Assembly: GCA_964512185.1 (NCBI GenBank)
Contig: CAZEJJ010000011.1
Coordinates: 5,131-69,130, forward strand
Direction: 5' to 3'
Length of the DNA: 64,000 nt
DNA from: an uncultured Enterobacterales bacterium
Lineage (GTDB): Bacteria; Myxococcota_A; UBA796; JAFGLY01
Position numbers and translations under genes: made by a program. Below, one piece after another: positions 1-8,765 of this stretch. The notes under the pieces were generated by a model that saw only the letters and a list, made by a program, of their open reading frames with translations, did not search any database and was not told the origin of the DNA. The stretch's first letter is position 1. Each line of letters opens with the position of its first letter.

Positions 1-1330
1 CCAGGCGGTCCAGTCGATGGCGATGGCGCGGGTCTCGGGGCGCCAGCGGCGCATGCTGGCGGCCAGCTTGCAGAGCAGGTCGTTGGCCGCGGCGTAGTCG
101 GTCTGGCCGCGGTTGCCGAAGCGAGCCGCGATGGAGCTGAACAGCACCATGGCCCCGATGGGCAGCCCGCGGGCCGCGCGCAGCAGGTTGAACAGGCCGT
201 CGGCCTTCACGTCGAGCACCAGGTCGAACTCCGCGGGCTCCTTGGCCTGGATCGGGTGGCTGATCTCCACCCCGGCGGCGTGCAGCAGGACGTCGATCCG
301 ACCGTGCTCCGCGCGGATCCGCTCGACGATTGTCGCCACAGCGTCTCCGTCGCGCATGTCGGCCGGGTGGTAGATCGCGCTGCCCCCGGCCTGCTCCACG
401 GAACGCATCGCGCGGATGATGGCCTCCTCGCGCTCCAGGGCCAGGATCCGGCGCTCCACCTCGCGGGGCGTAGGGCGGAGGCCGGCGCGCTTCATCTCGG
501 CCGCCAGCTCCAGCTTGAGGGCGTCCCGGTCAGTGGCCAGCAGCTCGAGCTGTGGGTGGCCGGGGCGGGGCGCTGGCGCCAGGTCCAACAGGTGGAACAC
601 GCCCCCGCTGGCGGCAGCCAGATCGGAGACGATGGCGCTGGTGATGCCACCGGCGGCTCCCGTGACCAGGAAGACCGTGTCCGGGCCCAGCTCCATGCCG
701 GCGTGGCCGTCCACGGCGGGGCGCTCGCGCAGCACGACGCCGAAGCGCCGCCCGTCGCGGCGGCCCACCTCGACGGCTCCGGGGTCGGCCAGGGTCTCCT
801 CGATGAGGGCCTCGGCCAGCGGCGCGGTGCGGCGCCCGGGCGCGAAGTCGACCACCTTGACCAGCAGCTCGGGCCGCTCCCGGCCCAGCGCCTTGGTGAA
901 GCCCGCCACGGCGCCGCCCATGGGCGCGGTGGCGCCGCTGGGGCCGAGACCGTGGAGCCCGCCCAGGCGGGTGGCCGAGACAAGGAAGCTCCCCGGGTCC
1001 TGGAGGGACTCGTGCAGCCTGCGGGCGGTGCGGTACAGGCTCTTCACCCGCGCGCCCAGCAGGGATCGCCAGCGCTCGGGCTCCAGCTGTTCGGGGTCGG
1101 GCTCGACGTCCAGGGCGGGCAGCCAGTAGACGCCCTGCACGGGACCTGGGGCCAGCAGCTCGTCCAGCCGGGCCTCCAGCTCGGATGCTGCCAGCCTGGG
1201 GTCCAGGGTCAGGACGGTGGCGCCCAGCTTCTTCAGCCTCGACGCCAGCGAGCGGCCCACGCCGCCGCGGTCCATGGCCACGAGCACGCGGCTCGAGGCG
1301 TCGATCTCGACGCCGGTCGGCGCGAACAGC
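1..1330 (-). other. Ketoreductase (SDR) domain, partial
   Basis: [16 protein letters not shown] (about 640-700), [29 protein letters not shown] (about 60-130). Confidence 0.7.
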
Positions 1331-7127: not shown

Positions 7128-8765
7128 TCAGGAGGCTGGGAAGAATGCCGTGAGCTGCCGCGCCACGAGGTCCATGTCCTCGACCAGGCCGTGCTGGACG
7201 CCGATCACCGCCTGCAGGCCGAGGCTGTCGGCCAGATCGGGGTCTTTCTGGCCCGCGCCCACCGCGAGCTGGAGCCCGTTCCAGGCGACCTTCCAGGCCG
7301 CGTCCCGGGCGTGCAGCCGCGCCATGGCCCGGACGAGGGGCAGATCGAGATCCAGGGCGCCGCAGAGCCCCTGGGAGGCTCGCTCGCAGAGCACCGCGGC
7401 GGTCTCCGCCAGGGTGATCAGCTCACCCAGCCGCAGCAGGACGTGCTGGCTGCGGGTCAGCCGATCCAGCCGGCAGCGCTCCAGCAGGGTGGCCAGGGCC
7501 GCCAGGCACAGGGACGCAGCCTCGGCACCGCAGCCGGGCGCCGCGTCTGAGATCTCGCTCAGCCGGGCGGCCCACTGGCGGTAGTGCTGGCCGCGGGACT
7601 TGAGGTGCAGCTGCCAGCGGTCCCTGGCGATGGTGCGCTCCAGGATCTCGGAGGTGCCCTCGTAGATGGTGGTGATGCGCACGTCCCGCTTGATCTTCTC
7701 AACCATGTACTCGCGCGTGTAGCCGTAGCCGCCCAGGGCCTGGATGGCGTCCTCGGCGGCCTTGTTCCCCGCCTCGGTGGCCAGGTACTTGGCCACGGCG
7801 CCCTCGGTGGCCAGGCCCTCTTCGCCAGCGTCCAGGCGCTCGGCGGTCCACTCGATGTAGGCCCGCGCGGCCTCCAGCCTGACGGCGTTGGGCACGATCA
7901 GCTTGTGGGTGAAGCCCTGCTTGTCGCACAGCAGGGAGCCACCCTGATGCCGCTCCTGGGAGTACCGGATGGCGCGCTCCAGGGCGGCCCAGCCGGCCCC
8001 GAGGCCGAAGGCCGCCACCATCAGGCGGGTGTAGCCGAACACCGCCGCAGCCTGGGCCAGGCCCTGCCCCTCGACCCCACCCACCAGCCGGTCGGCGGGC
8101 ACGAACACGTCCTCCAGGAACAGGGCCGCGGTGTTGCTTGCCCGCAGGCCGTGCTTCTCCTCCGGCTTGCCGCAGTCGAAGCCCTCGGTGGGGCGCTCCA
8201 CCACGAACCACGAGGGGCCACCAGGCGCGAGTGCCAGGATGGTGTACAGGGACGCCACCCCGCCGTTGCTGATCCACTGCTTGCGGCCCGTGATGCGGTA
8301 GCCAGGGCCGTGGCCGTTGTCCTCGACCGGCACCGCGCGGGTCTGCAGCAGGGAGAGGTCGCTGCCCGCCTGCGGCTCGGTGGCGCCGTAGGCCACCAGC
8401 AGGCCTTCCGCGGCGATGCGTCCCATCCAGTGCTCCTTCTGCTCCTCGGTGCCGCCCACGATGATCGGATCGGTGCCGAGGAAGGTGGCCAGCACCGCGG
8501 TGGAGATCCCCAGGTCGATCCCGGCGAGGGTCTCGGCCACGCGGTAGATATCGTAGGCCCCCGCGCCGAAGCCGCCGTGCTCCTCGGGCAGGAAGAGCAG
8601 GTGGATCCCCAGGGCCCCGGGATCGTACAGCCGGTCCAACACCTCCTGGGGGAACTCGTCCCGCTCGTCAAGGGCGAGCAGGTACTCCGGTGTCAGCTCG
8701 CGCTCGGAGTACGTCACGAGGGACGACAGGATCATGTCCAGGGTCTCTCTGTCCAAACCAGGCAT
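7128..8765 (-). CDS. Acyl-CoA dehydrogenase family protein (545 aa, long C-terminal extension)
   Basis: [41 protein letters not shown]. Its stop lies 18 nt upstream of the synthase ATG on the same strand. Confidence 0.85.

Follow-up and report, generated by a model that had tools for sequence, protein, structure and literature searches.

A partial Type R-like lipid synthase locus with a second, active-looking ketosynthase, threonine-bearing carrier domains and a linked acyl-CoA dehydrogenase gene

Background

The closest described system to the locus reported here is the Type R secondary lipid synthase cluster, which has the order KS-MAT-CLF-ACP(3-6)-KR (ketosynthase, malonyl acyltransferase, chain-length factor, acyl carrier proteins and ketoreductase) together with a phosphopantetheinyl transferase (PPTase) and has no known product (Shulse & Allen 2011, PLoS One 6:e20146, PMC3098273). 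Its hosts include Koribacter, Solibacter, Elusimicrobium and Roseiflexus, and in Koribacter an acetyl-CoA carboxylase (ACC) gene lies between the synthase and the PPTase (PMC3098273). We analysed a megasynthase gene and the acyl-CoA dehydrogenase (ACAD) gene directly upstream of it, which lie at the left end of a 64,000-nt stretch of DNA, hereafter called the window (contig CAZEJJ010000011.1, positions 5,131 to 69,130 of the forward strand, assembly GCA_964512185.1), from an uncultured bacterium of the GTDB lineage Myxococcota_A. Very likely they are the two leading genes of a Type R cluster.

In the polyunsaturated fatty acid (PUFA) type synthases a KS-CLF pair is normal, and the CLF lacks the Cys-His-His triad (PMC13291983). 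Outside the synthases, butyryl-CoA dehydrogenase-EtfAB, the caffeyl-CoA reductase CarCDE and acryloyl-CoA reductase are ACAD-fold flavoproteins whose physiological reaction is to reduce an enoyl thioester with electrons from an electron-transfer flavoprotein (ETF); their ACADs are tetrameric proteins of 380 aa that act on short CoA esters in fermentations. In the very-long-chain acyl-CoA dehydrogenase (VLCAD), in ACAD9 and in the bacterial long ACADs (2z1q, 3owa), the substrate oxidised is free acyl-CoA, as part of beta-oxidation, and there is no link to a synthase.

Results

Domain organisation of the synthase

The G+C content of the window was about 72%. On the minus strand a single open frame extended from 7299 to 1, and its earliest ATG, at 7110, was preceded by a GGAG-containing leader (GGAGAACCAAGGAC). 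The megasynthase encoded from this ATG (1-7110, minus strand) was partial, with 2370 aa in the window, and ran off the left edge in the order KS1-AT-KS2-ACP-ACP-KR, where AT is an acyltransferase domain; all coordinates of its domains refer to the minus strand. KS1 (residues 7-472; 5695-7092) was PfaA-like and type I polyketide synthase (PKS)-like (Pfam E 3e-74), with the Cys in DAACASS (212-218), a His in EAHGTST (347-353) and Lys and His in KSNIGH (382-387). The AT domain (residues 603-884; 4459-5304) was matched by Pfam PF00698 (E 2e-40) and by the FabD model TIGR00128 (E 4e-60) and contained the motifs GHSLGE (699-704) and HAFH (803-806), of which HAFH is the malonyl-specific signature of AT domains. 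KS2 (residues ~1012-1550; 2461-4077) matched the solved FabF 1j3n with E 2e-24. It was followed by two domains matching the Pfam PP-binding family, ACP 1 (residues 1694-1761; 1828-2031) and its direct repeat ACP 2 (residues 1802-1869; 1504-1707), and by a KR (residues 2146-2370; 1-675; Pfam E 5e-25) that was cut by the window edge and had its catalytic Tyr within TDYAAAN (2337-2343).

An original prediction, made from the letters of the window, had read this architecture as KS-AT, a second KS, two carrier domains and a KR, and the Pfam and NCBIfam domain scan bore it out. The order was also, as predicted, unlike that of PfaA and of modular PKSs, with the second KS after the AT and ahead of any carrier domain. 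The prediction had further called the architecture unusual; it is neither rare nor undescribed, being known as Type R since 2011 and present in hundreds of genomes from several phyla.

Family membership and distribution

The domain order of KS, malonyl AT, second KS-like domain, tandem ACPs and KR (Pfam) on a single PfaA-like protein was that of Type R. Shared ancestry with the Roseiflexus and Acidobacteria clusters was indicated by identity and gene order. Compared with loci of the same gene order from Roseiflexus, Kouleothrix and Acidobacteriota, KS2 was 57-72% and the ACAD about 70% identical; a locus from a Roseiflexus metagenome-assembled genome (L006) had a layout identical to the Type R-like family and a KS2 about 71% identical. 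The window matched contigs of marine or environmental metagenomes (ENA SUTE22-1, JGI 3300007510), and the closest named relatives belonged to Chloroflexota, with about 70-74% identity. As in Type R, a PPTase gene was present downstream in the nearest relative with an intact gene (L084) and in 45 of 63 loci, ACC lay between synthase and PPTase in Acidobacteria, and the phyla were the same. The window copy differed from Type R in having two ACPs rather than 3-6 and in being truncated. In the Type R paper the second KS was named CLF, and a dehydratase (DH), the upstream ACAD, ETF and Fe-S genes, a wax ester synthase/diacylglycerol acyltransferase (WS/DGAT) and the Thr of the ACPs were not mentioned.

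Used as a query, KS2 retrieved more than 1000 proteins with 53-71% identity in Chloroflexota, Acidobacteriota, Actinomycetota, Myxococcota, Gemmatimonadota and other phyla. Out of at least 599 loci that were confirmed in a scan of genomes, 80 were fetched for comparison. Among 1.84 billion cluster representatives, 682 clusters (50% identity) were found at E <= 1e-30, and in these KS2 typically lay near residue 1000-1600 of proteins of 2400-3300 aa. Full-length relatives carried KS-AT-KS2-ACP(n)-KR-DH on a single open reading frame (ORF) in dozens of independent genomes, complete chromosomes included. Their DH was of the PKS type (PS-DH/PKS_DH_N), so that cis double bonds are not expected in the product of the family. 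In the searchable literature, outside which most subscription journals lie, the architecture was described only by Shulse & Allen 2011. The architecture is thus already known and widespread, and the copy in the window is a Type R member, truncated and with a local mis-assembly. What is new against the searchable literature is the pair of active-looking KS domains, the interchange of ACAD/ETF with a FabK-like enoyl reductase (ER) and the Thr-bearing ACPs.

The best NCBIfam match of the whole synthase was PfaA TIGR02813 (E 1e-258; 862 bits, below the cut-off of 1010). Like the Pfa PUFA synthases, the family has a KS1, AT, tandem ACPs and KR that resemble those of PfaA, a dedicated Sfp-type PPTase, two condensing activities and, in some relatives, a FabK/PfaD-type ER in trans or in cis. 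It differs from them in being without PfaB, PfaC and FabA-like DH/isomerase domains, in carrying the second KS on the same protein after the AT with its Cys kept, and, in the window lineage, in having the ER replaced by an ACAD. No PfaC-type KS-CLF, FabA-like DH/isomerase or PfaD ER was found in the window and the conserved neighbours. Nor was the organisation that of a modular type I PKS, there being no carrier between KS1 and KS2, one AT and tandem near-identical ACPs.

The second ketosynthase

The motifs NAACAST (residues 1255-1261), SHETFTP (1405-1411) and TGHP (1444-1447) were located in KS2, which keeps its Cys and both His as originally predicted, and a Lys as well; the positions of Cys1258, His1406, Lys1441 and His1446 were invariant in 120 of 120 homologues. 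The Pfam match of KS2 was weak (52 bits for KS_N and 23 bits for KS_C). It is covered by no curated NCBIfam model, the best family, FabF, giving 119 bits where the cut-off is 494. By sequence and fold FabF (KAS II) was the closest known enzyme, sharing the full Cys-His-His-Lys set, although KS2 was about 20% identical to it and is embedded in a megasynthase. An AlphaFold model of the homologue P0003 (pLDDT 89) superposed on FabF with TM 0.85-0.91. Relative to FabF, KS2 was extended at its C-terminus and carried an inserted helical hairpin of about 60 aa. The best solved relatives of KS1 were KS domains of type I and trans-AT PKSs and PfaC 6riw (E 1e-68). KS1 and KS2 shared 30% identity over 227 aa, and with this identity and different nearest relatives, an origin of KS2 as a duplicate of KS1 was ruled out.

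CLFs are KS-like folds defined by the lost active-site Cys, usually together with the rest of the triad. This loss was not found in KS2, which was ruled out as a CLF on its catalytic residues. Judged by sequence and model, KS2 is probably a complete, divergent FabF-like ketosynthase that looks catalytically competent. The prediction had allowed for the second KS being an inactive or CLF-type domain of a well-described family with a characterised lipid synthase. The family has indeed been described, and the domain is called CLF there; the conservation of the catalytic residues argues against an inactive domain, and no characterised product goes with the family.

Carrier domains and the PPTase

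Both ACPs of the window read DLGIDTVK, at residues 1719-1726 with Thr1724 (window 1933-1956) and at residues 1827-1834 with Thr1832 (window 1609-1632). The conserved Ser of the (D/E)xGxDS carrier motif was absent from both, with the fold and the rest of the motif intact. The direct repeat comprised 300 nt at a spacing of 324 nt, with 93% DNA identity and identical protein over the repeated stretch. As the two units differ in DNA and are identical in protein, they are two real copies. Related loci had 1-6 ACP copies, mostly 3-5. Tandem ACPs that are almost identical typify the iterative synthases of the PUFA type.

The Thr of DLG(I/V)DTVK was present in all 248 ACP repeats of 71 loci and aligned on the phosphopantetheinylated Ser of solved ACPs (PigH and the fatty acid synthase (FAS) ACPs of Streptomyces and Bacillus). 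Divergent representatives had Thr in 335 of 345 motif hits (~97%) and Ser in the other 10, which came from four proteins. This Ser at the same position speaks for a functional site at which Thr and Ser are interchangeable. The neighbouring PPTase kept the catalytic motifs GxDxE and WSxKE. In 19 representatives, for example P0368, P0377, P0270, P0375 and P0289, an Sfp-type PPTase was fused to the C-terminus of the synthase, and the PPTase is therefore regarded as dedicated to the synthase. On this comparative evidence we consider it rather likely that the Thr serves as the phosphopantetheine attachment site.

With regard to copy number, three JGI contigs of the 80%-identical relative (L085-L087) all ended inside the tandem ACPs, at synthase residues 1615-1695, and L084 had a 100-N gap within its tandem ACP repeats. 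ACP copy numbers in short-read assemblies, the two of the window included, may be undercounted.

The linked ACAD

The long ACAD gene (545 aa; 7128-8765, minus strand; Pfam) ended 17 nt before the synthase ATG. Of the 71 loci with enough upstream DNA, 70 had an ACAD homologue immediately upstream of the synthase and in the same orientation. The prediction had named the ACAD as the only upstream operon partner of the synthase. The linkage bears out a real operon partnership; a GNAT gene also lies upstream on the same strand (9052-9564), unconserved in relatives, and the ACAD is hence not strictly the only upstream gene on that strand.

The core of the ACAD was canonical, with the catalytic Glu369 in YEGT and matches to solved ACADs at E 1e-63; 5ol2 and 6fah were among its solved relatives. 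A C-terminal extension of 160-177 aa was conserved in 61 of 63 family members and is a degenerate second ACAD alpha-domain, the profile of the extension matching ACAD alpha-domains with E 7e-6. The model of the ACAD, in which the middle domain had low confidence, aligned over its full length to 2z1q, VLCAD (3b96), 3owa and ACAD9 (8phf) with TMq 0.70-0.74. The window ACAD has the features of the VLCAD type, namely a core with the catalytic Glu and an extra C-terminal helical domain, which in those four enzymes is likewise derived from the alpha-domain. It was only 20-26% identical to them and, unlike the VLCAD/ACAD9 type, is linked to a synthase. Its best NCBIfam match was the acryloyl-CoA reductase AcrC (E 1e-66, far below the cut-off); from the ACAD-ETF reductases it differs in its length of 545 aa, its VLCAD-like form and its tie to a megasynthase. 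A Rosetta-stone fusion, with an ACAD domain inside the synthase, was found in none of 146 representative proteins.

Gene neighbourhoods and enoyl reduction

Gene neighbourhoods, like domain order and conserved residues, were read directly from the loci. The order in Chloroflexota was ACAD, synthase, PPTase, carboxyltransferase, biotin carboxylase and biotin carboxyl carrier protein. In Acidobacteriota it was WS/DGAT, Fe-S/CCG oxidoreductase, ETFβ, ETFα, ACAD, synthase, ACC and PPTase; the loci L041-L075 carried the WS/DGAT-Fe-S/CCG (700 aa)-ETFβ-ETFα block on the same strand, about 5 kb upstream of the synthase, and the ACC after the synthase was a eukaryote-like, multidomain protein of 1900 aa. 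Downstream of the synthase, ACC was present in 51 of 63 loci and PPTase in 45 of 63; WS/DGAT was present upstream of it in 11 of 64. ETFαβ genes were upstream in 25 of 64 loci (with the Fe-S/CCG oxidoreductase in 24-25 of 64), all with acidobacterial-type layouts, and the ETFs adjoining acidobacterial members best matched EtfB and AcrA/AcrB subunits. No other conserved reductase gene was found in the ACAD-type neighbourhoods. By tblastn, ETFα, ETFβ, the Fe-S oxidoreductase, multidomain ACC, carboxyltransferase, biotin carboxylase, PPTase and WS/DGAT had no match in the 64-kb window. Since ETF α/β were not encoded with the ACAD within the window, the ACAD here would have to rely on genes at other places in the genome.

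An N-terminal extension before KS1 was present in 31 of 75 N-terminally complete representatives. Sixteen of these were about 690-740 aa long, one had 538 aa and 14 had about 200-355 aa, and all fell in one homology group. Four extensions were scanned, of which three matched FabK, an FMN enoyl-ACP reductase, best (E 4e-13 to 3e-26) and the fourth had no match. P0351, P0289, P0335 and P0267 (loci L088-L090) carried one or two FabK-like domains fused before KS1, and in the two loci with upstream context no ACAD gene was found upstream of the FabK-fused synthase. As the ACAD and the FabK-like ER are unrelated flavoproteins in the same slot, both are best read as supplying the missing enoyl reduction; the fused FabK-like ER of the ACAD-less relatives indicates that the family does use an ER. 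The proposal that the ACAD could act as an enoyl-reductase surrogate, which was part of the original prediction, thus gains comparative backing from the 70/71 linkage and from the replacement by a FabK-like ER in relatives. From these sequence comparisons, we judge it about as likely as not that the ACAD serves the system as its enoyl reductase, a role in which it would work in the reductive direction.

P0351 also contained an extra KS-like stretch between KS1 and AT.

Truncation and an assembly error in KS2

In the alignment, every relative had the near-invariant sequence ...KGTxLPxRWxLPxALRDETGVIFASAFPG at KS2 residues 1138-1166, from which the window deviated (3613-3699, minus strand). The deviant stretch was equal in length and frame to the family stretch, and on both flanks the window matched the family sequence in the same reading frame. 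Positions 3633-3698 comprised 66 nt without A or T, the longest such run in the window. Three independent metagenome contigs, L081 and L082 (ENA) and L083 (JGI), had an ACAD identical to that of the window. L081 and L082 were identical to the window base-for-base up to about 3688 and then continued as ...TSAGGQLPAGW, which fits the family; all three contigs terminated within 20 nt after this divergence point. L084, whose ACAD is 80% identical, read the normal family sequence at this place. A frameshift was rejected as the cause of the odd stretch, because none of the three translated frames restored the family sequence. Since L081, L082 and L084 read the family sequence, we conclude that the stretch arose as an error of the assembly or the consensus, at a hard-to-assemble place, and is not biology.

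Full-length relatives had 2730-3220 aa and ended in KR-DH, and so only about 360-800 aa of the window synthase are missing. From the layout of L084, which was TetR, ACAD, a synthase of 2730 aa and PPTase, the missing part is most likely the rest of the KR and a DH, followed by the PPTase gene. The pathway, which had been predicted not to be completable from the window, can therefore largely be completed from relatives.

Other features of the window

The GNAT acetyltransferase gene (170 aa; 9052-9564, minus strand; Pfam) lay 286 nt upstream of the ACAD gene. It was replaced by a TetR gene at the same place in L084, and no conserved gene cluster was found at its position across the 80 genome loci; the GNAT is probably outside the synthase system. 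A scan of 7000-9800 found no promoters or terminators. Ten other large ORFs of the window had Pfam matches to unrelated functions only, and the rest of the window encoded AAA ATPases, an HTH_17 protein, a penicillin amidase, an MFS transporter, a giant UvrA-like protein and a subtilase.

The UvrA-like protein is a double-length ABC ATPase of 1813 aa (30706-36144, minus strand). Within its gene, at 33234-33262, 20 consecutive C were found (GCGCGC-C20-GCGC), and this run may be another sequencing or assembly artefact. Three successive ORFs of 673, 370 and 206 aa at 9703-13459 (plus strand) had no recorded Pfam match, the first having been scanned directly and the other two taken from precomputed gene calls. 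At 14150-18505, two AAA_16/AAA_22 ATPase genes flanked an HTH_17 (excisionase-like) gene. These two regions together could be a defence or mobile island. Directly after the penicillin amidase gene (20107-22293), an ORF of 675 aa (22297-24321, plus strand) with a third-position G+C (GC3) of 0.95 and a strong coding signal had no Pfam match.

Discussion

We slightly favour the interpretation that the system is a self-contained, iterative, fatty-acid-synthase-like machine of the Type R kind, as its sequence features suggest. In such a machine the AT would load malonyl units on the tandem ACPs, and the chain would be extended by two competent ketosynthases, the PfaA-like KS1 and the FabF-like KS2, which would probably share the work by chain length, or as priming versus elongation, like the KS activities of PUFA synthases. 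The KR and a PKS-type DH, just past the window edge, would convert the beta-keto to a trans-2-enoyl thioester. The upstream VLCAD-like ACAD would reduce this thioester with electrons from ETF, for which ETFαβ and the Fe-S/CCG oxidoreductase are encoded adjacently in Acidobacteria. A dedicated Sfp-type PPTase, downstream or fused in relatives, would activate the ACPs on Thr. The product would probably be a long acyl chain, saturated or lightly modified, that goes into bulk or storage lipid, a role to which the frequent downstream ACC (51/63 loci) and the upstream WS/DGAT (11/64) point. We put forward only tentatively, and with more doubt, the general proposition that Type R is a stand-alone type I FAS unlike every characterised synthase in two respects, namely Thr-borne phosphopantetheine set by a co-evolved, often fused PPTase and, in the window lineage, a VLCAD-like ACAD working in reverse on ETF electrons, with sister lineages using a fused FabK-like ER.

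A different product would result if the synthase performed no enoyl reduction and made a polyene or partly reduced polyketide, the ACAD being an oxidative enzyme that desaturates the starter or product or that takes part in beta-oxidation with ETF. The synthase has KR and DH and no ER domain, the ACAD core is closest to the ordinary oxidative medium- and short-chain enzymes (MCAD/SCAD), and the ACAD, ETFαβ and Fe-S oxidoreductase together resemble the electron chain of fatty-acid oxidation. The same set also matches the chain used by anaerobes. We regard this alternative as unlikely, because the ACAD, with its family-specific domain, is tied to the synthase across phyla in nearly every locus, because a FabK-like ER is fused at the same synthase end in ACAD-less relatives, and because the ACC and WS/DGAT neighbours suggest bulk synthesis of acyl chains. 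It is still less probable that KS2 is a chain-length factor, that is, a non-condensing partner of KS1 that sets chain length or primes by decarboxylation. Shulse & Allen write the order as KS-MAT-CLF-ACP(3-6)-KR (PMC3098273), a KS-CLF pair is the norm in PUFA-type synthases (PMC13291983), KS2 is very divergent by its Pfam scores, and the actinorhodin CLF chain 1tqy_B was among the structural matches of the KS2 model. Against these points stand the Cys, both His and Lys conserved throughout the homologues, the best sequence and fold matches to active FabF enzymes, and the whole AT plus Pro/Ala-rich linkers that separate KS2 from KS1, unlike in adjacent KS-CLF pairs.

Two KS domains with complete catalytic residues on a single polypeptide would also be found in a non-iterative type I PKS of two modules (KS1-AT, then KS2-ACP-ACP-KR-DH) making a short polyketide. 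There is, however, a single AT, KS1 and KS2 have no carrier domain between them, the ACPs are near-identical and vary in number between loci, the whole protein matches PfaA best, and the co-located ACC and WS/DGAT fit a lipid better than a small metabolite, all of which makes such a PKS very improbable. Hardly credible is an explanation of the odd architecture as an assembly chimera of the metagenomic window. The corrupted stretch does lie inside KS2, and three other assemblies break at exactly that point; but the same order is found on an uninterrupted ORF in dozens of independent genomes and in L084, the closest relative, and the window is in frame with the family sequence on both sides of the patch.

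Several points weigh against the iterative, FAS-like interpretation that we favour. The search for a release domain, whether a thioesterase or another type, found none. Phosphopantetheine linked to Thr was not reported in the searchable literature, with most subscription journals outside its coverage, and no precedent is known to us for Thr being modified in this way. The normal reaction of ACADs is oxidative, and those that reduce enoyl-CoA work in bifurcating ETF complexes. The mutual exclusion of ACAD and FabK-like ER rests on the two loci with genomic context. Homologues of ETF, Fe-S oxidoreductase, ACC, PPTase and WS/DGAT are all missing from the 64-kb window, and its synthase gene, truncated and corrupted in KS2, allows no statement on the integrity of that gene copy.

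Conclusions

With part of its KS2 being an artefact, the window gene is unsuitable as a reference sequence. The family to which it very probably belongs is large, extends over many phyla and is common in bacteria of soil, sludge and mats such as Chloroflexota and Acidobacteriota. To our knowledge, attachment to Ser is understood as a universal rule of carrier-protein chemistry; if the Thr carries phosphopantetheine, this rule would be broken and the recognition of ACPs by annotation tools would be affected. If the ACAD is the enoyl reductase, it would represent a new way of completing the fatty-acid cycle, in which lipid synthesis is coupled with the ETF/quinone pool instead of NAD(P)H.

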